DNA of 52,993 nucleotides, taken from positions 69,058-122,050 of IMG/VR virus record IMGVR_UViG_3300019845_000023, one strand, 5' to 3'. The DNA comes from a virus. Taxonomy: Duplodnaviria; Heunggongvirae; Uroviricota; Caudoviricetes. Both the position numbers and the translations under genes were made by a program. Shown piece by piece: positions 1 to 52,993 of this stretch (positions within the stretch are counted from its first letter, which is position 1; every line of letters begins with the position of its first letter). A model generated the notes under the pieces. The model was not told the DNA's origin. It was given only the letters and a program-made list of their open reading frames with translations, and made no database searches.

Positions 1-1
1 C

Positions 2-232
2 GCCTCTATTTGCGAAGTATCCATAAGTCATACCCCACATCTTCTCATTTTTATTGACTAGCGGCACAGGAGTCTTTGCTGTAGGGAAGGGTTCCCAAGG
101 AAGTGCCGCCGAGATAAAAGGTGCACCGTCTGAATATCCGATATTAGGCCCACCGATATATGATGTTAATCCAGTCGCTCCATCGGTTCCATAGAACTAA
201 GGAGGATTTGGATATATCATTTCTGTACTCAT
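2..232 (-). CDS. 5' part of a gene running off the window edge; possibly glycoside-hydrolase-like (GH113-type N-terminus)
   Basis: GGGAGG RBS then ATG at 232; open to the window edge with one TAG (codon 12): MSTEMIYPNPP[Q]FYGTDG...KMWGMTYGYFANRG. Product call is weak. Confidence 0.6.
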
Positions 233-292
233 TTGCTATATCCCTCCCAAAAAATTTCACTATTTAAATAAGGTATCATACCTTATATTATA

Positions 293-321
293 ATATTAAC
301 ATAAATTTTGAAAAAAGTCAA
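293..321 (-). promoter_or_regulatory. σA-type promoter upstream of the gene starting at 232
   Basis: TTGACT-N17-TAATAT with TG before the -10; a perfect TATAAT lies 6 nt further downstream. Confidence 0.55.
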
Positions 322-324
322 ATA

Positions 325-1428
325 TTAAACTGGTTCGTTGTATATAAATTCTGTTAATGAATTGCCATTATAAATAACTTCTGTCATTTGATTTCCGTCA
401 TAATAAAATGGAACACCAGTTGGAGGTGGTGGCGGATTTTCTGGTATATCAAGCATAACTGGAATATACGGGAATCCGTTATTTCTGTTCGGGTCAATGT
501 GCCAATCTGTTGTTGCAGCTGAGTCAGTGCTGATTATGAAACCTTTGCTGTCAAGGTCGCTTTTGGACTTCATTTCTATTGTAGTTGCGCCAATTGTGCC
601 TGTAGGTAATGTACCGCTGTATTTATCAGTATTAACTAAGACGGAACTCATTTGTCCATAGTCCAAACGGAATCCGCCGGAAATATCGGCATTTATAACA
701 GTCTTTTGAAAAGTAGTAATATAAGAAAATCCAGCTATACCAGATACGTTACCTTCAATATAACAATAGTAAAAAGCACCATATAACTCATAATCATTGT
801 TTTCATAGGTTGCACGAATATTACAATATCTAATTCCAGCTTGCCAGTTCACTCCATTTGTAATCGAGCCGTCACCATTAAATGTTAGATTAAAACTACA
901 TACATCGATATATCCTAACATATATGTAACGTCAATTATAGCATTATATTCTTGACCAACAGAATATTTCTAAGCTGCTTCAAGACTACCTAAAAAACGA
1001 CAATACCTTATAAAAGTTCCACTACCAGAAGTTTGTGCTGAAGCCAATAATGCCACCGAAGCTCTCTATGAAGTATTTCCAGTCATATGTGCTGCAACAC
1101 CATTAGAATCGACTATGAAATCAATGAAATCAAGATATTCAACTCGACCACTGGCTTCATGTCCAGAAATTATAAATCCATAGTAGCTATAAGTGCCTGA
1201 AGTATTAGTAACTTTGGCATTTTTTATCTACCAGCCATTACCGTTGATAAATCCACGCAGCGGTATGTTATGCACTTCTCCATCTGTGTAGTAGTCACGC
1301 ATATCAAATACGCCGCCACCCTCTGGTAATTCAGTATACTTATTATCTGCTGTGGTGCATTGTAGAAATTCTTCCCAAGTCGTAGGCTTGTAAGGGTCTG
1401 CAGATGTGCCGCTGCCCGTTATCGCCAT
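325..1428 (-). CDS. Putative virion/tail protein, 367 aa (GSGT.DPY GLUG-like start, Pro-rich C-terminal linker)
   Basis: ORFs 1228-1428 and 325-921 are in one frame joined by 3 TAG (1228, 1066, 970); ends TAA; start overlaps the upstream TAA (TAATG). Confidence 0.8.
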
Positions 1429-4400
1429 TAATTTCCACCTCCATCGACAAAGTACATAATACCAGGTTCAGTTGCTTCAGAAGCAGACTAAACAACTTGA
1501 ATTGGAATTTGAGTTAATAATGCTTTGAGTGCTTCAAGCTATTTGAAACTAAATGATATTTCTTCATTAGTATTTGGATTACTTAAAGTAATACCACTTT
1601 CACCGCCTACCACTTCTGCTTTAATTCTAATACCATTATATAATCTAAATTCTGAATCATCAGTAATTTCTACAATAGGATTATTAGCATAGCTATTCAA
1701 GTGAGCATTACTATTATAGTAATATCTATATACTATTGTAATAGAATCGTTAGAATTTAAAATAATACTCTCATACTGGTCAACAATCTATCCACTTAAG
1801 AAAGTTTCAAAATCAGCATAGTCAGCACCTGCTTCAAACTGTTTAATAAATTCATATTTATCAGTTAAATCATAAGTCTCAGTAGGAGTAAAAGTATAGC
1901 TCAAATGAGAATATGCTCCTTGGCTCCAACCTTCTCTAAGTACACAGTTAACAGGTCCGTATGCCTGAATAATTGGAGACTAATCCCAAGTCTCAGTACC
2001 AACTCTATCTGCTGTTTGAATTGGACGATACCATTCTTTACCTAAATGTTGTGCCGCGCCCTAATATACAGAAGTTGTTGCTACTTTGTATCTTGGATGT
2101 TCTGCCGCATCATAGGTTCCTGTTTCTGCATTAGAGAAATCATAAGCTCCTACATTATAAGGTTTAGAAGAACTCTGATTTAAGAAGGTTTGAATATCTT
2201 CTGGTAAATCAGCATAAGGAGTATTAGGATAATTAAGTTTGTAATCAGTAGTATTATTTACAGTATTTTTAACTAAATAACTGTCGTATTCTGCAATAAA
2301 ATTCTTTACCTTATAATAATAGTATCCATATCTTTGCTGATAATAAGTAACTGTACAATTAGTTCCAGCAACAACTCGGTCACATTTAAAAGCATTTCTA
2401 AAGAATGCTTGTACTTTACTATTATTAAAGAAAGTGCTTGCGCTGGTTGATATATATGAATCAATATAAACTGTATATTCAGAAGAAACTAAATCTTTAA
2501 CATTTTTAACTTCAAGTGACTCAATGTACTCATATAAGCTAACTTCAGACCAAGAAGTGTAAGCATTTTTTAATACTATCTGATAATTACTATTATCTTC
2601 TCCTCCTACTATATTACGGACTCCCTTCTTAATGCCTGCTTCCGCACCGCTCATATTAGAAGAGCCTATATATTTATAAATATAATCCTTTTTATCAGTA
2701 ACAGTATGAGTTTTTGTAATTGTTATATTAGTAATATCCAAATAATATGAACCTAAATAATAACGATATGTTGTAGAACTACCAGAATAACGTGATAATT
2801 GAGCATCTGATTTAAGGGTAAGAGCAAAATTATTTCCGTATCCAAAAGTATCTCTTATCCAGTCTTTAAATTCTTGTGACTATACTAATGTACTTTCCGT
2901 ATAATAAGTATTAGAATTAAAATACTAAGTTGTATTCCAGTTAATTATTTTAACATTATTAATTGTTAAAGTTTCTGTATATTTTATTGGAAGTTTTGTT
3001 TTAGATGTTCCAGTAAATCTATTCCAAGTGTAATCATCATTATGAGGGTCGCCATTTGGTAGAGTAGTTGCATTTTTTAATTCAGTCGCAAATTGAGTTT
3101 CAATATCAGAAGTTGACATATTGCTTAAATCAGTATCAACAACAATTTCGCCCTAAACAGAAATTTCCTTAGTTGTTTCATACATTTTTGGATAATGCTC
3201 ATATTTAGTTCTACTATACTTTTCAGCTACAGGATTGACTTCGCTATTTCTTAAAATTACAGTACCGCTCCAAGACTCTAAATGAGTATTGCCGTCAATC
3301 TAAATAAAAGAATCATTACCTTCAAATATTCCCTTAAATCTATCCCATTGACAAATAATCTCACTATGTTTTGGTTCTACTGTTAAACCAAAAGCATACT
3401 TAGGGTCAAATTTAATTGCTGTAGTTCCACTTGGTTCAAAAAAGATAGAAGTCTCTGCAGAACTATCTGGACCAAATCGGAAATATGTACTACTTCCGTC
3501 ATTAGGAACAATGTCTCCAATAAGTTTAGAATTTCCTCCAATTCCATATTTAATTTGAGTTGTACTATTTCCACCACAAGAAGCTACAATACCAATAGTA
3601 GAACTATCTCTTGTTGCTAATTGCATACCCAATCTACCTGATTCTGAAGAACAGATATGCATACTAACAGGTCCTTCATAAGCAACTAAAGGATAACCTA
3701 TATACTTTTTCATTATATTTAAATCATCAAACTTAGTATTTATACTACAATGAGGATGGTCATAATCAAAAGTTCCAATCTAACTATGTTCAATACAGTT
3801 AGCTCTTGTACTATAATCTACCCAACTACCATTAAAGAAAATATTTGAACTACCATCCCATCCATCATGGTCTTTTCCATTAGTAATGGCACCACTACCA
3901 AAAACCATCTGTCCTCTATCGACAGAAACACAAGCAGGAAATTCTTCAGTACCTCTCATTCTTACCATAGACCCTGGATGAATATAAACTTGGGTTCTGT
4001 AACCTTCCTATAATTTAATTCCATGATTAGTATCGTGATATCCATTAGAATACTGACCACCATTAATATGAATATCAGCATTACCAGATAAAATTGCTGT
4101 CGCATTATTTCTCATTTGTAAAGTAGCTCTTTCATAAATAGAAACTGTTGCTCCGTCATGAATTTGGAGTATAGGAGAATTATCATTATCTCTGCCACTA
4201 AAAGGATTAATATACTTTCTAATATCTTCTCTGTCGGGATGAGCCTATCCAAGCCAATAATTAGGTCCTGGATTAGCATACATATCAATTAAACAGTTAC
4301 CTCTCATTGAAATAGCCGGAGTGCTACGAGGGTCTGCTCCGCCAAGCATTTCAATTTTTGCAGTTCCTTTAATTTTAATAGTAGGGCTTGTCAAAGTTTC

Positions 4401-4979
4401 TTCAAAGTCTTCTCCGCCCCACCATTTTATACCACTATATACAGTTTCTTTTGTGCCTATTTCAATTTTTGAGTCTCCATAAATTTTAGCTATAGCAGAA
4501 TCTGCACTGCTAAAACCATTTTTTAAATAGGTAATTGGATAATTAAACACGCCCTAAGTTGAGGCAGGTTTTATTGTACCAAAAGCGGTTTCAAATGGAG
4601 GTCCTTCAATCATTCCAATTCCGAAATAAGTTGGTGAAGGAGTTACTCCACCTGTCACAGGAGTTATATTATTATCTTTCCAAAATGGCATACTATAAAG
4701 ATTACAGTCATTTCCTTTTGCCCATTCTTTAGGTTCAACATTTCCAGTTCCAGTAAGTAACTGAGAGTAGCTTGCCTTAATCGGAGGAACATCTGCTCCG
4801 AGTGGATAAAACCGCTCAGTTTCAATGTCATAGCGATAAGGGATATTTGTTTCTTCGACTATATATAAATGGTTCTCTTTCTTATCGGTTAAATCGAAAA
4901 GGTCTTCATAGGCATAGACAGTAGTTACGTCATCTTCTGCTGCACCGAAAGGAATCCCATTACGAAATATAATTCCCAT
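1428..4979 (-). CDS. Large putative tail fibre/receptor-binding protein, 1183 aa
   Basis: Six track ORFs (4554-4979, 4245-4550, 3780-3968, 3300-3713, 2925-3119, 2061-2741) share one frame; 13 TAG, no TAA/TGA until 1428; GGAGG RBS; paralogous to 5057-7186. Confidence 0.85.
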
Positions 4980-5001
4980 TTATTATGACCTCCTATCATA
5001 G

Positions 5002-5036
5002 TGTGCCGCCCCTCAGATTTTTAGAAGGGCGGCGCA
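5002..5036. other. GC-rich intergenic hairpin (terminator or RNA-stability element)
   Basis: tgtgccgccc-N15-gggcggcgca between the two paralogous genes; no clear U-tract on the coding strand. Confidence 0.4.
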
Positions 5037-5056
5037 TTTAATTTATATTATTCTCT

Positions 5057-7186
5057 TTAAGTTTGTGGATGAATTATATTATATAAAGCCTATAAATCTG
5101 CCATACTAAAAGTAACGTCAGTAGTACCATCGCTAAATGTAAATTCAACCTCTGATGTTCCCTATTCAGCTTTAATCGTTGCGCCATCACGAAGACGAAG
5201 TTCTGACTCACCATACATTTCAAATACAGGAGCATGAGTAGATGTAGCTGAAGCAAGTCTTGGAATATCATTTGTAAATTTATATCTAATATGAACGATA
5301 TAACTACTATTATTACTTTCATTATTTATAGTATATGATATTAAAGTTCTATTATATGTAGCAAGTTCATCTAAAAAGTCTTGATATTTAGTAGAAGCCT
5401 CAAAATCTGATTTTGACATTGTTGTATTATTTGTAAAACTATATTCTCCAGTATACTCTCTTGAAATATCTGCCGCCATTGCAAAGTTAGATTCATCATA
5501 CATCTAAAAGACAGGTTCAGAATCATTCTATACAAATACAGTCCAATCTCTTCCTAAATGTGAATTGCTTGGGTGGCCACCATAAATGATATTTTCATTT
5601 GCAGGAGTTGTGGTTCTCATTATAAATGAGCCACCATGTAATTCGCTATGGAAACTTCCTGATGTTTGAATATAAGCATTATCTCCTTCAATTAAAGCAT
5701 CTAATGCACTCCATTGGCAAGTTATTTCAGTCGCTACATTTGGAGTAAAAGATATAGCACAGCTACCCTTTGGTGAGTAATTAATACTTGAAACACCATT
5801 TGGACAATAGTTAAAAACTGTATTACTACTGCCGGCTGGTTCAATGTTGTAAGCTGCGACAGCATTTTTGCCGTGACACATATTAAACATTACTATTGCG
5901 CCGCTATCTGTACCAATCTTAATATCTTCATAACCATATCCACTCCAGTCAATGGATGTATAAGCACCGCCACTTGGAGCTATTTTTGCAGCTAAATATC
6001 CGCTATCACCAATTGATAAATGAGTTTTACCCATGATATTTAATGTAGGCTAAAAAAGTTTTGGCATTAAAGTAGAAGGAAGACTACCTGGGCTAACACT
6101 GGAATTATAAATAAAATTACGATGATTATATAATCTATAGGAAAAACTAATTATACGACTACTTAAAGTGGCACCAAAATCATGGTCACTTGAATTATAA
6201 TCATAAATTCCATTATGAATACCATGCTATGCAGTTATTAAAAGTTTACCAGGACCGTCTCCACTGCTACTACTTTCAAGAGCAATCATTGGTCCATATT
6301 CGCCGCCATAGGTACCTGTTGACCTTGTCATTCTAATCATTGCGCCCGGTTCCATATATAAACCAGTTCTTATTTGACCAGAATTAATCTGTTTACCATT
6401 AAGGTCAGTTAATGCTCCACCACGGATAACAACATCTGCATTACCAGCCATTTCAAGACCCGCACTGTCTGCCATTTTAATAATAGAAGCGCCTTCCATT
6501 ATAACCGTACTTGAATTTGACATATGGAAATATGGAAAAATTTCTGCATCACTTAAACGAGTATAGTTACTACCATAAGGAGAGTAACCTTGATAGGCAT
6601 AATAAGCAACTTCAGACAGACATTTGTCACCAGAGCTATGCCTTGGTAAAGCGCGAGTATAGGTCTTCTAATTATTATGGTCCTAATAGGCATACATTTC
6701 AAAAATACCGGCTCCAAGCATTGAGATGACAGGAGAACTTCCTTCTCTTTTCATCATCTATAGTAATGGAGAACCATACATAAAGAACTTGGCATTATTT
6801 TTATTTTCGCCCCAATATAATTCTGAAACATCAGTTGTACTTCCTATTTCTATTGCTGTCATAGAAGTTTTCAATTTTGCAATGGATGAAACAGCGCCAG
6901 GACTTCCTATTGTCTCTGCAAACCAAAAGCTATGAGGCTTTACTCCACCTTCTCCGTCACCTATTACTATTTCATTCTCATCTGCCGCGATATTAAAAGT
7001 TGCAGACAAAGGAACAAACTCTCTGTTCTCAACATCCCAATAATACTCAGTATTATCAGAAGTAGTAACATATAAATGATTTGTTTCTTTATTTGGCAGA
7101 TTAGTTAAATCCTCAAAATTAGTTACAATAGTAACATCTTCTTTCGCCGCCCCAAAAGGTCTACCATTTCTAAATATAACTCCCAT
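5057..7186 (-). CDS. Putative tail fibre/receptor-binding protein, 709 aa, paralog of 1428-4979
   Basis: ORFs 6758-7186, 6227-6523, 5528-6034 and 5162-5503 are in frame; 8 TAG; ends TAA at 5057. Confidence 0.85.
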
Positions 7187-7443
7187 TAAGTATCAACCTC
7201 CTCTTCTGCATCAGGGTCGAATTCGGGGTGGTCTTCCTAATAAGCTGCGACAAGTTTATCATACTTAGTCATTAATTCATTTACTTTGTTAAGTAAATAT
7301 TCAACAGCATCAGAAAACTCTATATCTGTAACAAAGAATATTTGGTCTTTGTACTAATTCATAAAGTCTGGCTGTTCAGCGAGAGCAACATAATCATCCC
7401 AGGTTATGTCCTACTCATGCATTTTACGCTGTTCATTTGCCAT
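7186..7443 (-). CDS. Hypothetical acidic protein, 85 aa (absent from ORF track)
   Basis: GGAGGTG RBS; MANEQRKMHE[Q]DITWDDYVAL...EEEVDT*; 3 TAG; TAATG overlap with the next gene. Confidence 0.75.
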
Positions 7444-7526
7444 TTCCTTTGCACCTCCGTACAATTTGTTTTCTACATAATAAAGTAGAGATTTGAGTCG
7501 AAACGTCTAATCCTTTACTTATTGAT

Positions 7527-7555
7527 ATTATAGCATAAAAATAGAGAGAAGTCAA
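7527..7555 (-). promoter_or_regulatory. σA-type promoter embedded in the terminator hairpin
   Basis: TTGACT-N17-TATAAT with TG extension on the minus strand; the -35 is one arm of the 7543-7571 hairpin. Confidence 0.8.
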
Positions 7556-7575
7556 GTGTTGACTTCTCTCTTTTT
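7537..7575. terminator. Bidirectional intrinsic terminator
   Basis: 13-bp perfect stem AGAGAGAAGTCAA-gtg-TTGACTTCTCTCT with an A-tract before and a T-tract after. Confidence 0.85.
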
Positions 7576-7579
7576 AATA

Positions 7580-10500
7580 TTAGCTTATATGCTTATCTAT
7601 TCTTGTAATTGTAAGAGCTTCTGTTGGTATATTTGTTGCTTTCCAAGCTGAAGATTGACGTCCAGAGCTCTCATTTGGCCATAAGAATGTATATGGAGAA
7701 TTAGCAATTTTCTTTCCATAGAACATTGGATAATGGAAGTCACAATCTCCATTTGGATTGTCCCAATTATGTCCATTATGGTCTACGTTGCCTTTTCCAG
7801 TAGGCATATCTGCCGCCGCACCAATGATAATATAACCAATAGGAGGACGATTAAATATCCACTCTCCATTACTTACCCAGCAATTATCTATATTATGAGC
7901 TAAATATCTTGCTTCTGTTGAACTTGTTGCAACGTCTTTGGCTATTTCTCCCCAGTTGAATAATATAAAAGCAGTATGACTTAAATCAGCATAAACATCT
8001 TTTTCATAGCTATCATTTTGAGCTTCATAGTCATAACAAATTGGTATAATAAATACCTAACGAGCATGACGTACATTAGAAACAAATGCGTCTCCATAAT
8101 CGGCAATATCAGTCATTACACAAGGTTCTAAAGCCGGATTTACTCTATTTGGATACTAAGCTAATGCAAATGCATTACCATAAATTAATCCAATTGACTC
8201 AATAAAAGCATTAATTTTAGCCATACCTCTTACTTCATTATTTACATCTATTAAGTCTGTCATATAAGAAGTAGCAACTCTTCCACTTGATGCATCGCCA
8301 TTTATATTAATAAAATTAGTGAATAATCCTTGAGTATACCAACCACCAGTTACAGTATAAGATTGTCCATCCCAAGTATAAGTTTGGGCTGCTACTGCGT
8401 TAAGAGGAATAGTTCCATCCTTTACCCCTGAACTTAAAGTTAATCTTCTTGTTCCTTTTAATCCTCCATATCCACTATTTACAGTATCTATAAGATAACG
8501 GAATTGACTTTCATATCCTACACTTGGGTCTTGGTTAGCAGCTGAAGACCAGCACATTCCAGTATTATTGATTCCTTGTGAAATTCTGCCTTGAATCAAT
8601 CCATTTGGACGTGCGCCACCAGAAGTAACATATGTCATTGAGCCACTACTACCAGTTTCTCCAGCTATTGTAAGATAAGAATAGCAGCCAAGACCTGAAC
8701 GGACAATTGTTGTGCTTGCACTTTCACTAACTTCTTTCAGCTCTCCTGTACAAGGTGCTGTTAAAGACTCTGTTGGTTTAAGCATATTTGAAAGCTAAAT
8801 TAAATCTCTATATTTTTCTCCTGATTTATCTGTTAAACTTGGCTATAAATATTGAATACCTATTCCAGTTTTTCTTCCATAAACAGTATCCTTAAGAACA
8901 AAGCTTGGAGAATAACGATATGTCGCTCTTGAGCAACATTCAAGATGCAAATTTAATGGCTAATAATTAGTATAATCACTAACACCGCCAGGCAATGAAC
9001 CATCAATACCTTTAACATATGCCTTATCTGTATTAACTTTAGATGGGTCAAAATTAATCATTATTAATTCTAATTCTGCAACAGAATTATTAGGCATAGC
9101 AAGAACCTTAGTCGCATCATACTTATAAGTAGCTCTACCGCTACTTTTGTTAGAGATAATTATTTCTGCCAAACTAAATTCATTAGAACCAGCTTCTCTA
9201 TAATAAGCATAATAAGTTGGATTATACATAATTATATTTAAATCTTTAATAAATTCAAAATCTGCTCCATTTGCTACCATATTATCTAATGTTTTCAAAT
9301 ACCATCCATCTCTTGTAGAACCAGTATTTGCACTTGAAGCATCTACAGAAATATTATAGAAAAATGGATGTACCATTTTCTTTCCCTATATCTGTGATTT
9401 TGAAGTTGGGTTATCAGCAACATCAAAAGCAACTGTTGATTGATATAAATCCCATAAATTTAAAGATGTTGTACTATTATTTTGGCCGCCATTTGGATAT
9501 GCGCCAGTTTTATTCCAAGAAGAACAAAATGACTCCCAATCAGTATAGTCCAATTCTCTACTATAATTACTTAAATTATTATAAATTGGTACTTTAATTT
9601 GTCTTGCTCCACTACCTTTCTAAATATTAACATAAAGATTTGTTAAAGTATATCCCTGGCACATTGAAGCAAATTTATCTCCAACAAGTTTTACCTAAGT
9701 CTGTCCATCAAGACCAAGTAACAAATTAATCAAATTTACTTCACTGGTAATTTTATTAAGTTGTTTAATAATAGTATTGATAGCATCTACAATACCATCA
9801 TCTCTCCAAACAGCCTCAACTAAAGCGTCGCAAACCTATCCAAGAACCCAAAAATTCTTATCTAAATCTTCTACTTCCACTCTACGAGAGTAGCGAGGCA
9901 TAAGTAAATTCAAATAACTACTGAGTTTAGATAGTCTATTTGAAGGGAAAATACCTGTCTCTTTAACATATGCAATAAAATCTTCTTTAGTTACATATGC
10001 TTTTTGAGTTTCATTTCTTTTATTAATCTAATCTACAATAACCAAAATTTTTGTAGATAGTCTTGCGTCTATTAAAATTCCACCATCATAATGGACGGTA
10101 TCCGCTTTATTTACAAAGTCAGTAGCACATTCAGTAAGAGTCTTTCCCTAAGCATTAAAATAACAAGTATATTCTTCTCTTTCAGGCTATGGAGTACCAC
10201 TTTCTGGATAATATGATGTATCAAAACAACCTAAGTATAATGTTCCATTTGTTCTCTTAACAATAGGAATGGACTAAGAGTGATAATTTATTGAACCATC
10301 TACATAATCTAATAAGACATCATGTCTTCCTTCATTTTCATCCCATATGCGGTCAACTACAGTAGCTATTGAATTGTTCCACTTAACAGGGTCTAATTCT
10401 GTAATTTCCTGTATATCTCCATATTCAAAAACTCTATTGAAAAATCCAACTGGCTAAGTAGCAGAACCTGTTGAATAAACAGCATACATAGCGAGACTAA

Positions 10501-10942
10501 TTCTTGCATCATCTATACCAAGAACGCCATCATTACCGAAATCAAGTAAATCATAAAGCTGTTCGAGAGTAAGATTACCAACAAGGTATTCATCTTCAGG
10601 AATGTCGCCACCTTCTTCAAGAATTTTATTAGTAAAGTCCATATTCTTGATATGCATCGGAATCTCATCGTGGCGTGCTTCTCTATACTCAAGTCCAAGT
10701 TTATTAATTAAAGGTCTTGGATTCAAATAGTCTGGTAGTGTTCCTGTTGCATCAGCCTACAAAAGAGTTCTTCTATACTAATCATCGAAAAGAGCTCTAC
10801 TACCACCTATAGTATTATCACCATTTTTAGTTTCGTCTATGTATAAATTAGTAGTAAGCTAATCAATTATACTATCCCAATCTATCATACCATTCGCATC
10901 TTTTTCAAGAAGGGTAGGCTCTAATATAATATCTTTACTCAT
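7580..10942 (-). CDS. Large putative tail/structural protein, 1120 aa
   Basis: ORFs 10454-10726, 8960-9376, 8156-8785 and 7580-7807 are in frame; nearly all intervening sequence read codon by codon shows only TAG, no TAA/TGA; start overlaps the holin stop. Confidence 0.8.
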
Positions 10943-11258
10943 CTTCTTCCTCCTCCTTCTTTCCTATCACCCTTTCCCAAATCTTCTTTAGGGAATCAAA
11001 GCCATTCATACTAATGAACGCAATAATAAAACCATTAAGAACACTTGCCGCGATAGTAGCAAAACTAATAACAACGCCAGGTGCAAGGAATGGAATTATA
11101 ACAGCAATGATTAGAGCAATAATTAATGTTAATATCTAAGTAGGGAATTTCTTAGGTACTACATTTTTCATAACTTCAACTATAATCATAGTCAAAAATG
11201 CCATAGCACTTATTGAGCCTAAAGTTCCTAAACCTAAAGCTGCAAAAATACTCTCCAT
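10935..11258 (-). CDS. Holin, 107 aa (absent from ORF track)
   Basis: GGAGG RBS; about three hydrophobic segments, a KFPT[Q] linker and a highly charged tail (KKIWERVIGKKEEEEDE); directly downstream of the endolysin; one TAG at codon 41. Confidence 0.8.
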
Positions 11259-11304
11259 TGTTATCCCTCCTTTAAATTAAGGGGAGGTTTAACTCTCCCC
11301 TTTA

Positions 11305-12540: not shown

Positions 12541-12591
12541 TATATCAACCTCCTTTATAGGAATAATCCTATTATTTCCTCTTATAAGTAG

Positions 12592-12627
12592 AAAAAGTCA
12601 CAAGGACTTATAATAAATCCCTGTGAC
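12592..12627 (-). terminator. Intrinsic terminator upstream of the endolysin
   Basis: GTCACAGGGA-N11-TCCTTGTGAC followed by TTTTT on the minus strand. Confidence 0.65.
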
Positions 12628-12701
12628 CTCTCTGTATATATAACTATTAATTGCAAAGCGGTTGAAGGGGCGCCGCCTGAGCCAGAGCAATTATATAGTT
12701 T

Positions 12702-13385: not shown

Positions 13386-13397
13386 TTAAATCACTCC

Positions 13398-16040: not shown

Positions 16041-16055
16041 TTATCTCACCTCCCA

Positions 16056-16340
16056 TTAATATATGAACCATATTTTTTTAGTACATCCTGTTTTAAAAGT
16101 GACTGAATGTATCATCATATGGTTTGCTCCATCATAAGGGGTAATGAATTGTCCAGTAGATGGAACAATATTTGGAACGCCGTTAATTGTCAACTCTTCT
16201 CCGGCTGACTCTTCGAAGGCAATAAACTGAATTTTGCACTATTGACCTGGAGGAACAGTTCCAGTCAATTCCTTAAAAAGTAAAGGAACAATATTCTCGT
16301 CTGCCTAAGCAGTAATTTCAACACAAGCATACTGTGCCAT
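16056..16340 (-). CDS. Hypothetical protein, 94 aa (absent from ORF track)
   Basis: MAQYACVEITA[Q]ADENIVPLLF...KKIWFIY*; 2 TAG; TAATG overlap with the HPr-like gene. Confidence 0.75.
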
Positions 16341-42431: not shown

Positions 42432-45400
42432 ATGAGCTTAAATGATATACCTCGTTTTGATACCCACTCTCATAGTGAGTATAGTAATATTCGTTTAATT
42501 GACTCAATCAATAAGATACCAGATATGATTAAGACAGCACATCGTCTTGGAATGAAGGGTATTGCATTGACTGACCACGAATGTGTCAGCGGTCATTTAA
42601 AGTGGTTACAGACAGAAAAGAAGTTAAAAGAAAAGGGAGAGATACCCGAAGATTTCAAGTGTGCGTGCGGTAATGAGATTTATCTCGTTGATGACAGAGC
42701 AAACATTGAAAGATACTGGCACTATATCTTAATTGCGAAAAATGCAGATGGACATAAGGCAATCAGAGAATTAAGTTCTACCGCTTGGTATCACAGTTTT
42801 ACCTCTCGCGGCATGACAAGAGTTCCGACAGAAAAGAAAGAACTTGAAGCAATAGTTAAGAAGTATCCTCATTCTCTTATTGCAACAACTGCTTGTATTG
42901 GTGGACAGCTTGGAGGAAGAGTTCTTCAATTAGTAAAAGCTGAAGACCACGGCGATATGGAAGAAATTATCCGTTGTAAGCAGGATATAGATGCCTTCAT
43001 TAGATGGAATCTTGAACTATTCGGTGATGATTTCTACATTGAGGTTGCTGCCGGTCAATCAAAAGACCAGATTAGATTTAATAAGAGAATTGCCTCAATA
43101 GCTAATAATTATTTGGTAAGAATGGTAATCGGTTCAGACGCACACTATCTTACTGCGGCAGAACGTCCTCTTCACAAGGCTTATCTTAATTCAAAGGAAG
43201 GCGACCGTGAGGTTGATGAGTTCTACTTTGATGCTCATATGATGGATAATGAAGAAGCCTTTGGAAATCTTCAAGTTGCTTTCTCAGAGGAAGACTTTGG
43301 TCAAATGTGCGTAAACTCAATGGAGATTTACGATAAGATTGAGCCATTCAGTCTTGAACATACATCAATTATTCCAGAGGTTGAGGTAAGAGATTATCCA
43401 CAAATCTTCTCTCCTTATGGAGATAAATATCCAGTAATAAATGGATTATTTATGAGTAATGACATTCAAGAAAGATATTGGATAAATGAGTGTATACAGG
43501 CGCTTATTAATAAGCGTTTAATCACAGAGCCGGAATATCTTGAAAGACTTGAAATAGAAGCTGATGTTATTAAGACAATCGGTGAAAAGCTTAATGATTG
43601 TTTGTTTAAATACTTTAATACCTTCCAGCATTTCATTAACTTGTTCTGGGATTGCGGTTCAATCGTAGGTCCTGGACGTGGTTCAGCAGTATGTTTCCTT
43701 TCAAACTACTTACTCGGTATCACTCAGCTTGACCCATTAAAGTGGGGACTTAAGTATTGGCGTTTCCTTAATAAAGAACGTGTTGAGTTACCTGATATTG
43801 ATATTGACCTTTCTCCTTCAAAGCGTAAGAAAATCTTTGAAGCAATCCGTAAAGAACGTGGTGAGTTAAACGTTATTCAAGTTTGTACTTTCGGTACAGA
43901 AGGAACCCGTTCAGCGATTGCCGCGGCAGGACGTGGTTATCGTTCAGAAGCATATCCTAATGGACTTGAAGTTGAAACTACTCAATATCTTAGTGGTCTT
44001 ATTCCACAAGAACGTGGCTTCTTATGGTCAATTCACGATGTCGTTTATGGTAATCCTGAGAAGGGTAGAGCTCCTATTGGAGCATTTATCGCTGAAGTAG
44101 AGAAGTACCCTGGTCTTCTTGAGATTATTGAGTCAATTGAAGGACTTGTAAATAAAAGAGGTCAGCACGCTTCTGGTGTTATTCTTTATAACACAAATCC
44201 TTGCGATACTGGTGCGATAATGAGAAGTCCTAACGGAGACCTTACAACTCAGTTCTCACTTCACGAAGCTGAGGCAATGGGCGACGTTAAATATGACTTC
44301 CTTGTAACTGAAATTTGTGATAAGATAACAACTTGTATCGAACTTATGCAGAAGGACGGTATTGTTGAAAAAGACTTATCATTAAGAAATATTTATGACA
44401 AGTATCTCCACCCATCTGTATTAAATCTTGAAGATAAGAGAATGTGGGACGCTCTTGGACAGGGAACTGTTCTTGATGTATTCCAGTTCAGTACAGGTGT
44501 TGGTCTTGCAACTGCAAAGCAGGTTAAGCCTCAGAATCCAACCGAAATGACTTCAGCAAATGCGATAATGAGACTTATGGGAGAAAGAGGAAAAGAAAGA
44601 CCACTTGATAGATATTGCCGTCTTAAGGAGGATATTGGTCAGTGGTATAAAGAAGCAAGAGATAGAGGACTTAGCGAAGACGAAATAAAAATCCTTGAAC
44701 CATACTACTTGCCTCGTTTTGGCGTTCCTGCACTTCAAGAAGACCTAATGGAGATTTGTATGGACGACAAGATTGCACACTTCTCATTAAAAGAAGCTAA
44801 CGCGGCACGTAAAACTGTTGCGAAAAAGCATATGGAAGAAATTCCTGCACTCCACGATAAGTTCGTTGATGCTTGTCCGAATAAGAATTTCGGTGATTAC
44901 GTTTGGGAAACTACAATGGGTCCTCAGATGGGTTACTCATTCTCACTTCCTCACTCACTTGCATATTCATTCGTTGGTATTCAAACATTATACTTAGCAA
45001 CAAATTATCCCGCTATCTATTGGAACTGTGCTTGCTTAATTGTTAATGCCGGCGGTGCAGATTTGTTAGATACAGACGACGTTGATACAGATGCTGAAGA
45101 GACAGACACAACAGTCAAGAAGAATAAGAGCGTAAACTATGGTAAAATAAGTGCCGCCATAGGAGATTCTAAGACACGAGGAATTACTGTATTGCCGCCA
45201 GATATAAATGAGTCAGACTTAATCTTCAAGCCTGAGTTAAAGCGTAATGCTATCATCTATGGTATGAAGGGAATTAATCGTATAGGCACAAAACTCGTTT
45301 ATGAGATTTTCAATAATCGTCCTTACACAAGCATTGAAGATTTCTTATCAAAGGTTAAGGTAAATAAGCTGCAAATGTTCTCACTTATAAAGGCGGGAGC

Positions 45401-46352
45401 TTTCGATGAACTTTGCGGAGACAGAGTCGAAGCAATGACTAACTACATTAATGGTATAGCAGACCAGAAGAAGAGAATAACTCTACAGAATATGCAGATG
45501 CTTATAGCTCAGAATATGATACCAGCAGAATTAGACTTTGAAAAGAGATTATTCAATTTCAACAAGTATATCAAGGTTTCTAAGGACGGAACTTACTACT
45601 ATCTTGATGAAATTGCGATGCCATTCTTCGAAGCAAATTATGATACAAATAAGATAGAAGAAATCGTTGTAACAAATGACGGTCCGAAGGGCAAGATTAA
45701 AATGACTACTTGGGAGTCAATCTATAAGAAAGGTATGGACCCAGTAAGAGATTGGATGAAGAAGAATCAGCAGGACATTCTTAATGAACTTAATCGCCGC
45801 CTTGTTCAAGAGGTATGGGATAAGTATGGTAAGGGTTCAGTAGCTGATTGGGAAATGGATAGCTTAGGCTTCTACTACCACGACCATCCACTTGCTAATT
45901 TAAAGGACGATATATATAGTATCGCTGATTTTAACGACCTTTCTCCTGAGCCAGAAGTAGACCGTTGCTTTACTACAAAAGACGGTTCAGAGATTAAGAT
46001 GTTCAAGATATATCGTATCGCAGGAACAGTAATTGATAAGGATAAGAATAAGAGTTCAGTAATGTTATTAACTCCGTCCGGTGTTGTAACTGTTAAGGTT
46101 TGGAAGAACCAGTTCGCTGCTTGGGATAAGCAAATTTCTGAGCGCGGCGCAGATGGTGTAAAACACGTAGTTGAAAAGTCTTGGTTCAGTCGTGGTAATA
46201 AACTTATTATAACAGGCATAAGACGTGATGACACATTCATTCCAAAGAAGTATAAGAATACTGAATTTGATATATTCGAGAAGATAATCAAAATGGACGA
46301 GAAAGGATTTATCTTAGAGTCATTAACTGAAAGACCAGAGGTAGATGAATAA
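42432..46352 (+). CDS. dnaE: DNA polymerase III alpha subunit (DnaE type, intact-looking PHP domain)
   Basis: HSHSEYS, LTDHE, SDAHY, GPGRGSA, PDIDID, GQHASG, GYSFSLPH; no TAG in 1306 codons. Confidence 0.95.
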   Translation: MSLNDIPRFDTHSHSEYSNIRLIDSINKIPDMIKTAHRLGMKGIALTDHECVSGHLKWLQTEKKLKEKGEIPEDFKCACGNEIYLVDDRANIERYWHYILIAKNADGHKAIRELSSTAWYHSFTSRGMTRVPTEKKELEAIVKKYPHSLIATTACIGGQLGGRVLQLVKAEDHGDMEEIIRCKQDIDAFIRWNLELFGDDFYIEVAAGQSKDQIRFNKRIASIANNYLVRMVIGSDAHYLTAAERPLHKAYLNSKEGDREVDEFYFDAHMMDNEEAFGNLQVAFSEEDFGQMCVNSMEIYDKIEPFSLEHTSIIPEVEVRDYPQIFSPYGDKYPVINGLFMSNDIQERYWINECIQALINKRLITEPEYLERLEIEADVIKTIGEKLNDCLFKYFNTFQHFINLFWDCGSIVGPGRGSAVCFLSNYLLGITQLDPLKWGLKYWRFLNKERVELPDIDIDLSPSKRKKIFEAIRKERGELNVIQVCTFGTEGTRSAIAAAGRGYRSEAYPNGLEVETTQYLSGLIPQERGFLWSIHDVVYGNPEKGRAPIGAFIAEVEKYPGLLEIIESIEGLVNKRGQHASGVILYNTNPCDTGAIMRSPNGDLTTQFSLHEAEAMGDVKYDFLVTEICDKITTCIELMQKDGIVEKDLSLRNIYDKYLHPSVLNLEDKRMWDALGQGTVLDVFQFSTGVGLATAKQVKPQNPTEMTSANAIMRLMGERGKERPLDRYCRLKEDIGQWYKEARDRGLSEDEIKILEPYYLPRFGVPALQEDLMEICMDDKIAHFSLKEANAARKTVAKKHMEEIPALHDKFVDACPNKNFGDYVWETTMGPQMGYSFSLPHSLAYSFVGIQTLYLATNYPAIYWNCACLIVNAGGADLLDTDDVDTDAEETDTTVKKNKSVNYGKISAAIGDSKTRGITVLPPDINESDLIFKPELKRNAIIYGMKGINRIGTKLVYEIFNNRPYTSIEDFLSKVKVNKLQMFSLIKAGAFDELCGDRVEAMTNYINGIADQKKRITLQNMQMLIAQNMIPAELDFEKRLFNFNKYIKVSKDGTYYYLDEIAMPFFEANYDTNKIEEIVVTNDGPKGKIKMTTWESIYKKGMDPVRDWMKKNQQDILNELNRRLVQEVWDKYGKGSVADWEMDSLGFYYHDHPLANLKDDIYSIADFNDLSPEPEVDRCFTTKDGSEIKMFKIYRIAGTVIDKDKNKSSVMLLTPSGVVTVKVWKNQFAAWDKQISERGADGVKHVVEKSWFSRGNKLIITGIRRDDTFIPKKYKNTEFDIFEKIIKMDEKGFILESLTERPEVDE

Positions 46353-48261: not shown

Positions 48262-49053
48262 ATGAAGAAAGAAGTAAATGAAAAGCTCGAAGCGTTATTC
48301 GCATATGATACCAATAATACACTTGACCAGTTACTTTCATTGCTCGAACTTCCCGATGAGCAGTTTGATGCACTTTATCCAAGTATTCAGTAGAAGCTCG
48401 ACCTTGTTTTCGCAAGTGAAGAGTTCCAGCAGGATACATTAAAGGCTCTTAAACTTACAGGTCACGGTTCTATTGAGGAAGAGAGGGCTGCGGCACTTGA
48501 AGTAATTGATGAGATTTCAGCAGATGACACACTTTCTCGTTCAAAGAGGGATTTCCTTACATCTCTTATCGAAGGTTCAGTTGTATCAATCATAAATCTT
48601 ATCGAGGTCCCAAGAGAGCGCGTTAAGGTTCAGATTAAAAAGCTTAGCGAGGATGCTGTTATTCCTCAGTATGCACATAAGACTGATGCTGGCGCAGATG
48701 TTTATGCAATAGAAGATGTTACACTTAAACCACATGAGACACAGCTTATTAAGACTGGTATCTCAGTTGCAATTCCTGTTGGATATGAGATTCAGGTTCG
48801 TCCTCGTTCAGGACTTAGTCTTAAGACAGGTTTAAGAGTTGCTAATGCCCCTGGCACTATCGACTCTGATTATCGTGGTGAAGTATGTGTAATTATGACA
48901 AATACTGCTAATCTTTCTCAGACAATTAATAAAGGCGATAAGATTGCACAGCTTGTAATCTCAGCCGTTCCGATGATTGATTGGGTTGAAGTTGACGAGC
49001 TTGACTCAACAGAGAGAGGAGAAGGCGGCTTCGGCTCAACTGACAAGAAGTGA
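48262..49053 (+). CDS. dut: Trimeric dUTPase with about 120-aa acidic N-terminal domain, 263 aa (absent from ORF track)
   Basis: AGADVY, RPRSGL, GTIDSDYRG, IAQL, RGEGGFGST; the RBS-linked ATG is upstream of TAG 48391. Confidence 0.92.
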
Positions 49054-49059: not shown

Positions 49060-49797
49060 GTGGCAGGAAAGCTTAAGTATGAAGATATAAAATAGGATAT
49101 AGAAAGTAGCGGTTGGCAATTATTGTCAACCGACTACGTTAATCTGAAAACAGATTTAGAGTTGAAATGTCCTGAAGGACACTTGAACTATGTATCCTAT
49201 GAGAAATGGCGCCGCGGCACGCATGAATGTCCAATTTGTAAGGAGAATAAATATTACCATACAGATAATATAGCCGTTAAAAAAACAGGTTTCAGAATAC
49301 TTGCTTTTGACCAAGCTTCAATTACATCTGGTTGGTCTGTATATGACGGAGATAAAATGATTAAATATGGGCATTGGACATCTGATGGCGCACATAGTAC
49401 AGAGCGTATAGCTTAGACAAAATAGTGGGTAGTTTCTATGATTGCTAAATGGAAACCCGATAAGGTAATTTTTGAGGATATTTAGTTATAGACATATAAG
49501 AAGAACCCACAGGAAGTCATTGAAATGGTTACAACATTTAAAAAGCTCGCTCATTTACAAGGAGTTCTTAAAAACTATTGTTATGAAAACGGCATTTTGT
49601 ATAAAATCGCCGCACCTGCAACTTGGAGACATCACTCTTAGGTAAAGGGTAACAACAGAACCGACCAAAAGAAAAGTGCTTAGCTAAGAGTTAAATCAAT
49701 CTATGATATTAGTGTATCATAGGATGAGGCAGATGCTATATTAATTGGTCGCTGGGCTGCATATGATTAGAAAGCAAATGAGATAATTGAGTTCTAA
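49060..49797 (+). CDS. ruvC: RuvC-like Holliday junction resolvase with N-terminal Zn-ribbon, 245 aa
   Basis: CPEGH...CPIC; ILAFDQAS...GW; FEDI[Q]L[Q]; LAHLQG; [Q]DEADAILIG; 9 TAG. Confidence 0.85.
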
Positions 49798-49806: not shown

Positions 49807-50184
49807 ATGATAATATAGAGAAATACTTTGCCGATATTATCAAATATCTTTTCAAGAATTTCTGATACTAAATTTGATATAAATACTTAGTATAAGCTCT
49901 TAAAAATAAAGAAAGCGATTGAAGAAGAAGAAGAACTTTATTTAACTTAGTTAGATAGACTTCAAGAATATTGCTTAAGAGATGAGAATGGAAATCTCAT
50001 TAAAAATGAAGATGGCGGATATGCAATTGATACAGAAAAAGCTCAAGAATGTGCTGATATTGTAAAAGAAATAAATTCAATTCAAATACAAATACCAGAT
50101 ATTCAATTCAGTCTTGATGAACTTGCACCGCTTCAATTAACTTTTAAGGAGTTAGAAGTTCTTGACCCATTTATAAAAATATAA
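49807..50184 (+). CDS. Hypothetical protein (DUF1617-like), 125 aa (absent from ORF track)
   Basis: AAGGTG RBS; YKLLKIKK...RDENGNLI...G pattern; 3 TAG; ends at the terminator. Confidence 0.7.
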
Positions 50185-50221
50185 AAAGAAAGAGGTAAGA
50201 TTTATCTTACCTCTTTTTTAT
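50184..50221. terminator. Bidirectional terminator between convergent modules
   Basis: AAAGAGGTAAGA-ttta-TCTTACCTCTTT with an A-tract before and a T-tract after. Confidence 0.88.
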
Positions 50222-52095
50222 TAGTATTGGGATGTAATTCCAAAATATTCTTCTATTGTAGTATTCTTTAATTTATTCGCCCATTCAGTTCCTACATAAC
50301 GAACGTGCCAAGGCTCATAAATATATCCAGTAATACTATCTTTTCCATATGGATAACGTATGATAAATCCATATTCATGACAATGCTAAGCAAGCCACGC
50401 AGATTGATTTGGATATCGAGCAACATATCCAGTTTGTGAATCTGAACTTGCTGATGTTATATCAATCGCATATCCAGTATGATGTTCTGAATAGCCTGGT
50501 CTTGCTGAATATGTATCTCTTGTACTTGAAGGATAGCTATTGTAAATAGACTACTAATCAGAATAAGAACGATAGCCGCCGGTTCCATATAGACTTCCTC
50601 CGGATACAGACATCGGCTCATTACGAATATTATGCTAACTTGCATAAGCTTCCCATCCAGCTTTAAGACTATTATATGCTGCAATTGTTTCACTTCTTAA
50701 TCCACCGACAGCAGAAATCGCCGCCTAAGTCATTGGATAGGATTTATTGACAACAATCAATCCATCGAAATAATGACAGCCGCCCCTCTCTTCATGAGTA
50801 TGAGTCTCTTCATTTGGAATAACAGCAGGATTTGGCTCTCTTCTTGTCTAATCCATATCCCAGTTGGTAGTAAATATCGTATAATACAATCCAGGTAAGA
50901 ACTCTACAACTGTAGCCAAATTAATAATCGTAGCTTCACCTGGCACTGGAGTAGGTCCACTATGATTATTCTAAAATGGACAAGCCTAAAAACCTTCTAT
51001 AGTATGTGCCTAAGTTAAACCATAAGCAGGTCCATATCTAATGTTTTTATAAATTGTCTGTGCTTTTTCTAAATCCCAGTCAGATTTCTACTAAGACTCA
51101 GTAATAACATTATATGAGCCCCATCCTCTTTCTTGCCACCAACGGCAAAATGTTTCCAAAGTTGAACCCTCAGCTCTATAATTATAGGCAGTCTGGTAAT
51201 CAGTTGGAGAACGATATAATATAGTTGCTCTCAATAATTTAGCATATGAGATACCTTCTTCTCCCTCTCCAAATTCGTGAGTACATATTAAATAAGCCAT
51301 CTTTAGTCCTGGGTTAGTACTTAAAGTAGTTAAAGAATCTGGATAAGCTCCCATAAAGGCCTCAGACATTGATAATGAACCATATGAATCGCCATACTCA
51401 GGTACCATTGTTCCTCCCATTGCATTATTGCAAGAAGTTGGGTCATACTCAATACCACCAGGAGGCGGCGTATCAGAGTCACCCTGAATTTTAATATATA
51501 CTGGTTCCTAACTAAAAATAGCATATCCAAGTCTATCTCCAACAGCTTGACCTGCACAAGTTTTACTGCTGTATTCTGCATATGCCGCGGTACCAGTTCT
51601 TATTAATGGTTTAATATCAAGATGTAAATGAACATACTATCCAACAGGACCATCGAACCATTCACTTCCTTCTGTATGTCCGCTACAACCCATACCACCA
51701 ATAAGCTATCCTTTTTTAACTTTATCACCTATGTGCAAAGTAGGGAACTAAGGGTATTCAGATGGATTTACAAGATGACAATGATATATAATTAAATCTC
51801 CATCCAGAATCCCACTTGACTAAGATAATGTATTTTCAGCTAAAATAGTAATATCATTACCACCAGCATAACTTGTATCATATTGAGTAGAGCCATGATT
51901 ATAATGGACATTTGTGACTTCTCCATCACACATGGCGTATATTGGAGTACCAAGTCTATCTCTATAATTATCTGAAGTAGCTATATCCAATGGAGTATAA
52001 CCATGTCCACTATATGTTGTTATAAATCCAGTTGCCTTTGGGGCATTTAACCCCAAAGGATGGACAAAATATTGATTTAAATCTATTTCAGACAT
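50221..52095 (-). CDS. Multi-domain peptidoglycan hydrolase: M23 peptidase, putative SleB-like middle domain, VanY/M15B peptidase; 624 aa
   Basis: M23: PIYAMCDG.V, VKKG[Q]LIG, HLHLD; M15B: GYRSYSD[Q][Q], SARPGYSEHHTG.AID, YEPWHVRYVG; 16 TAG; ends TAA. Confidence 0.88.
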
Positions 52096-52100
52096 TCATA

Positions 52101-52991
52101 TCAACTCCCATAATATCCTGGGTCTAATAATCCATAAGTTTCGATAGAAGTACTACCTCCACCACCTTCACTACCAGTACCAGTATATTCAGTATAAGTA
52201 TTTTGACAGTCTATTGTGTATGGAACTCCAGCAATAGGAAGCTTGTTAGAAAAATAAATTTTCTATTTAGAGCCATAACTTCCTGTTACTTCATACCATC
52301 CTCTATAAAACATTTCAAATATTTCGTGTAAATTTACATATTCTTTATCTGCATTTTGTTTAAGTAGATGCTGAATTACAGTTAATCCCTAAGATGCTCC
52401 TGGTATATTTATTGTGGTAACGAATAAATCTTCCTCTGTTGGTAAATATGCAAATTGTCCTTCTGTACTAAATGAACCAGTAATTTTTTTAATTTCGTGA
52501 TTATGGCGAACTAATTTAATGCTGGCAACTGCGGTAGAAATAGCTTCATCTAATGGAATACCATTCTTATCTCGGATGTTATGGAAATCCAAGTACATTA
52601 CTCCTCGTTCTATCCAAATATCCGCATTTTTGATTTGTATTTCATCAGTAATTTTTGAACTTTGAGTAAGCAAACTGCTTCCAGTCTTATCATAAATATC
52701 TCCTCCCATATACAAAGAACCATCTTTTTTAATTGAGAAAATATTTTTAGCTTTTCCGTCAGTGTCTTTAGCACAGCAGAATAATCTTTCATCACCAGAA
52801 ACCTAATCTTCCAAAGCAATTTTATTGTTAATATATAATCCCGCCGCGCCAGTAACCGGCTGAATAGGAGTCTGCTATTCGCTTTGAGTGATAAAGCCAT
52901 AATTTATATCATTTTTATAATAAAAAGTTGGAAGTGTAGATAAAGATATAGCATTTTGACCCTAATCCTAAATATAACCAGTCTTTTCCAT
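52101..52991 (-). CDS. 3' part of a putative tail/baseplate protein, probably starting beyond the window
   Basis: Frame of track ORF 52389-52715 is open from the window edge to TGA 52101, with 6 TAG only. Confidence 0.7.
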
Positions 52992-52993
52992 CA

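Follow-up and report, generated by a model that had tools for sequence, protein, structure and literature searches.

TAG is probably read as glutamine in an uncultured cattle-gut phage, with TAG codons concentrated in tail and lysis genes

The DNA analyzed here (the window; 52,993 nucleotides) is the last 53 kb, positions 69058-122050, of the 122,050-bp linear IMG/VR virus record IMGVR_UViG_3300019845_000023, whose completeness is 81% according to CheckV. Its GC content is 36%, and that of the whole record 39%. The window represents that part of an uncultured siphovirus-type cattle-gut phage which carries its tail, lysis and replication genes. The best-supported reading of this DNA is that TAG is a sense codon, with glutamine (Gln) far ahead of any other meaning. 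TAG-containing frames make up most of the tail, lysis and accessory genes and some of the replication genes, with about 120 sense TAGs within the window. As a whole, we hold with high confidence that TAG means Gln and that genes stop at TAA and TGA (NCBI table 15); we infer that host enzymes would charge the phage tRNAs that read TAG, and that these tRNAs would gate late gene expression.

TAG as a sense codon

Coding density was calculated by greedy tiling of the window with open reading frames (ORFs), in the same manner for each code variant. With the standard code (table 11) the density is 0.726 and the median ORF length is 112 amino acids (aa); reading TAG as sense raises these values to 0.948 and 241 aa. 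Controls in which TGA or TAA is the sense codon reach 0.766 and 0.867, respectively, both with more and shorter ORFs. A preliminary description of this DNA had held that fragmentary ORFs join in frame at TAG, and re-calling the genes bears this out, i.e., the rebuilt ORFs contain up to 17 TAGs each and no in-frame TAA or TGA. Because TAA outnumbers TAG two- to three-fold in non-coding frames, ORFs that are rich in TAG yet free of TAA and TGA are not attainable by chance.

The window contains 50 code-15 ORFs, 32 of them with at least one TAG. Table 11 shortens half of these ORFs (25/50) by more than 20% and leaves seven without any piece of at least 60 aa. Among these seven are the holin, the dUTPase, a winged helix-turn-helix protein and a 125-aa ORF; the first three had indeed been listed as missing from the standard-code track. 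Also on that list was a ferredoxin-thioredoxin reductase (FTR)-like gene with one TAG, which is real (25658-25882; PF02943 at 47 bits). Pfam domains that span TAGs are VanY, Amidase_2, DHH, the N- and C-terminal domains of DnaB, and FeThRed_B.

It had further been claimed that all rebuilt genes end in TAA or TGA, often with TAATG or ATGA overlaps. The endings are as claimed, albeit by construction once TAG is taken as sense; overlaps of this type are found at 13 of the 49 same-strand gene junctions, including the one that follows an 1183-aa ORF with 13 TAGs. The end of GyrA is also as described, namely TAG-GAA-TGA at 30987-30995, overlapped by the next ATG at 30992. Under table 11, GyrA stops at the TAG at 30987-30989; with TAG as sense, Gln-Glu is added before the TGA.

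Evidence for glutamine at TAG positions

What we regard as the strongest single result pointing to Gln comes from L012, a strain about 96% identical in DNA sequence, from another sample, which shares 31 TAGs with the window across six genes. All eight codon differences that involve TAG are exchanges between TAG and CAG, split five to three between the two directions. None leads to TGG or TAA, the remaining transition neighbors of TAG.

Some database homologs had already been called with TAG as Gln, and we therefore sought relatives whose DNA has no in-frame TAG. Three syntenic fragments with about 58% protein identity (L001, L005 and L006) have none in the M23/VanY and RuvC genes, in which the window has 16 and 9, respectively. 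Over five orthologous genes, CAA or CAG stands at 20 of 53 TAG columns in these fragments (Gln background 3.9%, binomial p = 3e-15). The fragments are short and have no gene ending in TAG either; their Gln codons are unambiguous, but by themselves they do not establish TAG as a stop in those phages. An empirical substitution table was built from the same relative alignments, to test which window residue predicts the residues facing TAG. Gln beats the next-best residue, Ala, by 25 nats, and Glu by 28, so the alignments favor the meaning that the preliminary description had assigned. Between strains and between distant relatives alike, TAG acts as a synonym of CAG and CAA.

Recoded relatives are also present in ENA and Logan samples. 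At least 15 studies of cattle-gut metagenomes have yielded contigs about 95% identical to the window. One of these contigs covers the entire 3-kb test stretch without indels; it differs mostly at third codon positions of the TAG-containing frames, and carries CAG in place of TAG at RuvC-like codon 194. TAG columns are common to independent assemblies at 55-71% protein identity. A scan of IMG/VR with the single M23/VanY protein gave no match; an alignment-based scan gave two loci.

The motifs cited in the preliminary description were all located where reported, with TAG in frame:

49474-49491, plus strand: EDI[TAG]L[TAG], RuvC-like resolvase
51697-51720, minus strand: VKKG[TAG]LIG, M23 domain
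50554-50577, minus strand: GYRSYSD[TAG], VanY domain
12268-12285, minus strand: AW[TAG]GLP, endolysin amidase
21598-21618, plus strand: KK[TAG]QEWD, endonuclease
3291-3311, minus strand: SFI[TAG]IDG, 1183-aa protein
5657-5677, minus strand: AYIQTSG, 709-aa paralog of the 1183-aa protein

TAG was translated as X in the homolog alignments, which are thus unbiased towards Gln. They confirm Gln positions in VanY, the amidase and RuvC. TAG 514 of VanY, in GYRSYSD[TAG], lies opposite Gln in 25/25 distant M15 homologs, including NCBI bacterial proteins, and the TAG of AW[TAG]GLP lies opposite the Gln of XlyA-type amidases in three PDB structures (3rdr, 3hmb and 2l47). In the RuvC-like protein, columns 142, 144 and 208 are Gln in 48, 41 and 41, respectively, of 65 full-length homologs (63-74%; background 4.7%), and the other six TAG columns are variable; a PDB sequence search with this protein gave no match. 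The M23 site is a D/Q column, hence compatible with Gln but not diagnostic. The match between SFI[TAG]IDG and AYIQTSG is real, and the two proteins are true paralogs (E 2e-33), but a single site is anecdotal; elsewhere in their alignment (25% identity) TAGs face N, S and Y. The pair also has a well-conserved segment in common, some 60 residues long, at the N-terminus.

A TAG inside the Walker A motif of a dNMP-kinase-like protein was considered as a counter-example to Gln and rejected: this column (12) is variable, and Gln is the plurality residue among about 100 homologs. Column 26 of the same protein is variable as well.

Codon usage agrees with these alignments. CAA and CAG together account for 2.8% of codons in TAG-poor genes and for 1.9% in the late block, where the addition of TAG (1.07%) brings the sum to 3.0%. 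In that block CAG is depleted and CAA is not.

Suppressor tRNAs and decoding machinery

The preliminary description had placed the decoding machinery outside the window or in the host, and two tRNA(CUA) genes are indeed found about 17 kb before it. According to ARAGORN the record contains 49 tRNA genes plus a transfer-messenger RNA (tmRNA), with no tRNA in the window. The tRNA(CUA) genes lie 3 nt apart (genome 51724-51800 and 51804-51879), in the second tRNA array, within a TAG-poor part of the genome. They score 55 and 53 bits against Rfam RF00005. Both have a canonical cloverleaf, with a 7-bp acceptor stem, a 5-bp anticodon stem, a normal T-loop and a short variable loop, as well as an encoded CCA, discriminator A73 and a first pair U1:A72. 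Both tRNA-Gln genes of the phage share this pair, which is uncommon among its remaining tRNAs. Bacterial tRNA-Gln typically has U1:A72, and GatCAB recognizes this element. These features suggest Gln identity for the tRNA(CUA) pair, in agreement with the alignments.

The other components that might have been expected in the rest of the genome, i.e., a glutaminyl-tRNA synthetase (GlnRS) and release factor 2 (RF2), were not found. Searches for RF1/RF2 domains (PF00472, PF03462) and for class-Ic glutamyl- or glutaminyl-tRNA synthetases (Glu/GlnRS; PF00749) gave no match in the 122 kb, and detected these families in control genomes. Host enzymes would charge the tRNA(CUA) with Gln, either through GlnRS or through a non-discriminating GluRS followed by GatCAB reading U1:A72, and the charged tRNAs would outcompete host RF1.

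Rfam was searched both with gathering thresholds and by E-value around the suppressor tRNAs; apart from tRNAs and the tmRNA, a YrlA (Y RNA-like) match below threshold was the sole result, and there was no HDV-like or theta ribozyme. The YrlA match (33 bits, E 1e-4) lies inside the tRNA array (L008 7735-7847, minus strand, i.e., genome 52734-52846). Near it is the gene of a 493-aa Ro-like RNA-binding protein (genome 45025-46506, minus strand; phrog_850, 1e-113), and the genome also encodes a polynucleotide kinase, an RNA ligase and the tmRNA. Together, these genes and the YrlA match point to an RNA repair and quality-control set.

Distribution of TAG and a possible translational gate

The use of TAG differs strongly between gene classes. 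Late-class genes have 96 TAG against 135 CAA plus CAG, and all other genes 53 against 715 (odds ratio 9.6, p = 1e-32); as a share of Gln codons, TAG reaches 42% in the tail and lysis genes and 7% in the rest. This share is 36% in the fibre/lysis block (1.07% of codons) and 52% in the resolvase/tail-lysin block. Early-type and RNA-repair functions (a helicase, thymidylate synthase, polynucleotide kinase, RNA ligase, the Ro-like protein, tRNAs and the tmRNA) occupy the first 69 kb of the record, where in-frame TAG is almost absent. The nucleotide following TAG (+4) is distributed much as it is after CAA/CAG or after codons in general, and thus gives no indication that a weak termination context has been selected for.

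In the replication block TAG amounts to 0.23% of codons. Per-gene counts are upper bounds here, because the greedy caller extends some ORFs upstream through TAGs and, in one case, chose a spurious minus-strand ORF (25187-25852) over true small plus-strand genes; single TAGs near the N-termini of GyrA, ligase and NrdD may precede the true start. PolIII alpha and GyrB have no in-frame TAG. The certain sense TAGs of this block are those of DnaB, RecJ, dUTPase, the dNMP kinase and the FTR-like ORF.

Gene order and codon counts suggest an early/late translational switch. The early genes and the tRNA genes would need no reading of TAG, whereas holin, endolysin, tail fibre, tail lysin and resolvase would. 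For this reason, accumulation of the suppressor tRNAs could act as a translational gate that delays the late and lytic proteins, as proposed by Borges et al. for other recoded phages (bioRxiv 10.1101/2021.08.26.457843).

Several TAG-poor genes have a TAG 1-14 codons before TAA or TGA, namely those at genome 16669-16974, 17944-18693, 55149-55742 and 60435-60767, as well as GyrA. Seven such TAGs are observed and about three are expected from the overall density, a marginal excess. They could be ancestral or early-phase stops with close backups, read through later.

A more elaborate scheme, which we put forward only tentatively and consider rather unlikely as a whole, is a graded, tRNA-only code switch in a Bacillota host, without a release factor or synthetase of the phage's own. 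Successive expression thresholds would be set by the fraction of Gln codons that are TAG (about 7% for the early and replication genes, then 36% and 52%), and would be passed with the build-up of the two divergent suppressor tRNAs. In GyrA and some six other early genes with a terminal TAG, close backup stops would limit the change after the switch to 1-14 residues, and the phage tmRNA would clear ribosomes that read through host TAG stops.

Alternative explanations

Could TAG be a sense codon with a meaning other than Gln, i.e., Glu on an unamidated Gln-type tRNA, Lys, Trp, Tyr or pyrrolysine? ARAGORN labels both tRNAs 'Pyl', from the anticodon alone, and many TAG columns are variable, with E, K and A common. 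In addition, hosts that use the GatCAB pathway for lack of GlnRS first attach Glu, which in such a host would be the first charging step here as well. However, Gln is the sole residue enriched opposite TAG, by the likelihood margins given above; the VanY column is invariably Gln; and all eight strain-level changes of TAG are to CAG, with none to GAG, AAG, TGG or TAY. The tRNAs are ordinary cloverleafs, unlike tRNA-Pyl, in both anticodon stem and T-loop, and their short variable arms exclude the bacterial Tyr, Leu and Ser types. We thus consider a different amino acid very improbable.

Equally hard to sustain is the idea that the host itself decodes TAG, being amber-suppressing or using code 15, so that the phage tRNA(CUA) would be accessory and there would be no switch during infection. 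The 122 kb without a release factor or aminoacyl-tRNA synthetase (aaRS) would fit this idea, as would the unremarkable +4 base, which is as for an ordinary sense codon. If TAG were free from the start of infection, however, neither the grading of TAG by gene class nor the nearly TAG-free first 69 kb would be predicted, and the phage retains two suppressor tRNA genes. Published recoded phages, moreover, infect standard-code Firmicutes and Bacteroidetes (bioRxiv 10.1101/2021.08.26.457843).

That the TAGs are real stops, in genes decayed, split or corrupted by sequencing or assembly errors, would account for the field of fragments under table 11 and perhaps for some of the near-end TAGs, but it has next to no probability, given that the frames are interrupted by TAG alone and never by TAA or TGA, that 31 of 39 TAG sites recur in independent assemblies of other samples and TAG columns are shared down to 55-71% protein identity, that strain differences fall mainly at third positions of the TAG frames with no indels over 3 kb, and that the translational-coupling overlaps at gene ends arise solely when TAG is sense.

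There are also observations that weigh against Gln decoding with a late gate. Many TAG columns are variable, and in the 58%-identical relative Gln stands at 39% of them, versus 55% for canonical Gln codons. The identity of the suppressor tRNAs is read from U1:A72 and the tRNA type, and the two are 66% identical to each other. The 122 kb (81% of the genome) encode no RF2, RF1 or Glu/GlnRS that would explain how host RF1 is outcompeted. With regard to timing, TAG occurs at low density in replication genes too, and in a homing endonuclease. Lastly, readthrough of TAG into protein is deduced from sequence, and a standard-code host is an assumption.

Gene content of the fibre and lysis block

The leftward late block is composed of 11 abutting ORFs. 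Their lengths in aa and TAG counts are 367/3, 1183/13, 709/9, 92/3, 1120/17, 107/1 (holin), 411/5 (endolysin), 227/4, 880/4 (tail fibre), 94/2 and 99/1 (HPr-like).

325-16639, minus strand: TAG-dense late block, 62 in-frame TAGs, no TAA or TGA
1428-4979, minus strand: 1183-aa protein of unassigned function, 13 TAGs, contains SFI[TAG]IDG; paralog of 5057-7186
5057-7186, minus strand: 709-aa paralog, 9 TAGs (BLASTP to the 1183-aa ORF, E 2e-33)
7580-10942, minus strand: 1120-aa protein, 17 TAGs, no TAA or TGA
10935-11258, minus strand: holin-like protein, 107 aa (phrog_18218, 9e-14; phrog_1299, holin, 8e-5)
11305-12540, minus strand: endolysin, Amidase_2, 5 TAGs (PF01510, 8e-13; phrog_15001, 4e-83)
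13398-16040, minus strand: tail fibre protein with a collagen-like stretch, 4 TAGs (phrog_3904 and other tail-fibre PHROGs)
16340-16639, minus strand: PTS HPr-like protein, 99 aa, one TAG (PF00381, 2e-9), the first gene of the leftward TAG-rich block

The holin-like protein has three hydrophobic segments and a charged C-terminal tail, with its TAG (codon 41) between TM1 and TM2. Pfam and PHROG searches with the TAG-rich proteins of 367, 1183, 709, 1120 and 227 aa gave no match. An Atlas feature search with the TAG-rich proteins that lack a family gave either no usable match or weak tail-fibre leads, such as those for the 709-aa ORF (scores below 0.85, to be taken as leads only). The ORFs of 367, 709, 1120 and 1183 aa thereby form 10 kb of TAG-rich coding sequence that could not be annotated, between the lysis cassette and the early region.

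Gene content of the replication, resolvase and tail-lysin regions

The rightward block was identified through Pfam and PHROG matches. It encodes RNase H, ligase, HNH, NrdD, the FTR-like protein, GyrB, GyrA, AAA_24, PhoH, DnaB, primase, RecJ, PolIII alpha, ClpP and dUTPase, and is followed by the resolvase and tail-lysin genes.

16697-49053, plus strand: replication and nucleotide-metabolism block
17658-18161, plus strand: dNMP-kinase-like P-loop protein, TAG at codons 12 (inside Walker A) and 26 (phrog_139, 1e-10)
25658-25882, plus strand: FTR-like ORF (ferredoxin-thioredoxin reductase catalytic subunit), 74 aa (PF02943, 47.2 bits, above cut-off)
28557-30995, plus strand: GyrA (PF00521, 2e-96)
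36014-37708, plus strand: DnaB-type helicase (PF00772 at residues 11-104 and PF03796 at 202-464, in one frame)
38787-40586, plus strand: RecJ-like exonuclease (PF01368 at residues 67-199), TAG codon 98 inside the DHH domain
48262-49053, plus strand: dUTPase, TAG codon 44 (PF00692, 1e-30)
49060-49797, plus strand: RuvC-like resolvase with a zinc-finger/endonuclease-like N-terminal part, 9 TAGs (phrog_159, phrog_827)
49807-50184, plus strand: 125-aa protein of unassigned function, 3 TAGs (phrog_1401)
50221-52095, minus strand: M23 and VanY (M15) peptidoglycan hydrolase, 16 TAGs, at the end of the tail module (PF02557, 9e-30; PF01551)
52101-52991, minus strand: Prophage_tail-type (Tal) protein, C-terminal 296 codons, 6 TAGs, running off the contig end

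TAG codon 116 of DnaB joins the N- and C-terminal domains in a single ORF. In the dUTPase there is no start for about 167 codons after TAG 44, and table 11 leaves a 52-aa piece. The PDB alignment of GyrA covers residues 21 to 802 and includes neither of its two TAGs, of which one precedes residue 21 and the other is at 811. The TAG of the FTR-like ORF falls inside the PF02943 match, and the protein has CPC/CHC motifs. This ORF lies just 3' of NrdD (22661-24607) and two small Cys-rich ORFs, a position from which its product may serve the anaerobic ribonucleotide reductase as redox partner.

Two homing-endonuclease-type genes, HNH (window 21169-21783, plus strand) and GIY-YIG (genome 61932-62963, minus strand), have three in-frame TAGs each despite TAG-poor neighbors, reminiscent of the recoded intron endonuclease described by Borges et al. 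PolIII alpha is an intact 1306-aa ORF in the window (42432-46352); in L012 (15743-20786) it is present as ORFs of 834 and 362 aa that flank a GIY-YIG homing endonuclease gene. A mobile element in an essential gene is here polymorphic between strains, present in one and absent from the other.

A bovine-gut metatranscriptome run yielded short contigs, of a few hundred bases, at 49067-49455, i.e., in the 5' part of the RuvC-like gene. They hint at its transcription, with DNA carry-over as another possible source.

The full length of Tal would be about 2070 aa, judging from L012. The gene order in that strain is TMP, Sipho_tail (Dit; 14 TAGs), Prophage_tail (Tal; 2072 aa, 35 TAGs) and M23/VanY; in L012, TAG density is higher still in the tail module that continues past the window end.

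Host and relation to known recoded phages

The affinities of PolIII alpha and the XlyA-type amidase make a Bacillota host likely. A scan of genome contigs with the endolysin, aimed at the host, gave no match, and the 122-kb record contains no terminase gene. Searches with PolIII alpha and M23/VanY found no close relative among 50,697 GenBank phage records. The best PolIII alpha matches are to Enterococcus and SPbeta-type phages, at 39-40% identity, and M23/VanY has domain-level matches only.

Gln-type suppression of TAG has a classical precedent. In E. coli supE (glnV), a tRNA-Gln with its anticodon changed from CUG to CUA suppresses amber codons weakly, and TAG remains a stop in the cell. The phage tRNA(CUA) resemble it in their probable Gln type, with an anticodon one base from CUG and Gln presumably inserted at UAG; unlike supE, there are two dedicated genes here, for the sense TAGs of the window.

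Code-15 gut phages are a described phenomenon, as the preliminary description had stated. Reassignment of TAG to Gln is known in gut and rumen phages that include crAss-like, Lak, Agate, Sapphire, Garnet and others (bioRxiv 10.1101/2021.08.26.457843). As in those phages, in-frame TAG clusters in the genes for structure and lysis, with variable use in those for replication, and there are phage tRNA(CUA), relatives that can be read with the standard code, low GC, TAA-dominated stops and recoded homing endonucleases. The Agate clade has genomes of about 154 kb and includes cattle samples; the genome size (122 kb at 81% completeness) and cattle origin of the present phage would be compatible with membership. 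Two TAG-recoded Agate and six Lak phages differ from it in having RF2. More generally, the code-switch module with a release factor or aaRS that occurs in Lak, Jade and some Agate phages was not found in this 81%-complete record.

NCBI taxonomy holds a 'Caudoviricetes code 15 clade'. Another recoded phage, phAss-1 (OQ749652; 136 kb, human gut), belongs to the proposed genus Phassvirus (PMC10607447). Both phages are large, tRNA-rich and uncultured, with a DnaE-type polymerase, no aaRS, several tRNA-Sup(CTA) genes, and TAG in tail, lysis and replication ORFs; predicted infection of Clostridia is a further common feature. We rejected assignment to the same genus: PolIII alpha is 40% identical, no closer than in the SPbeta and Enterococcus phages, M23/VanY has no match in phAss-1, and the source is cattle rather than human gut. 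The crAss-like phages, for which there is proteomic proof of code 15 (PMC9523058), have the same reassignment; they are, however, podovirus-like Crassvirales that infect Bacteroidota, an unrelated lineage with peptide evidence.

The hallmarks of code-15 phages are found in this record, i.e., TAG alone interrupts genes, Gln lies opposite TAG, the phage encodes tRNA(CUA), and TAG is biased to structural and lysis genes. TAG as Gln, phage tRNA(CUA), the late bias, standard-code relatives and TAA-dominated stops are already published (bioRxiv 10.1101/2021.08.26.457843; PMC10607447; PMC9523058); this phage is a further example, and existing knowledge of phage code 15 is unchanged by it. In practical terms, standard-code annotation destroys about half of the genes in the window, including the whole lysis cassette and the tail module, and such records therefore need table 15. 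What is new is a cattle-gut lineage, probably infecting Bacillota, without a close GenBank phage relative. This lineage comprises recoded members, others that lack in-frame TAG (protein identity about 58%), and near-identical strains in which TAG and CAG are swapped; it is therefore usable as a natural series for the drift of a codon from stop to sense.

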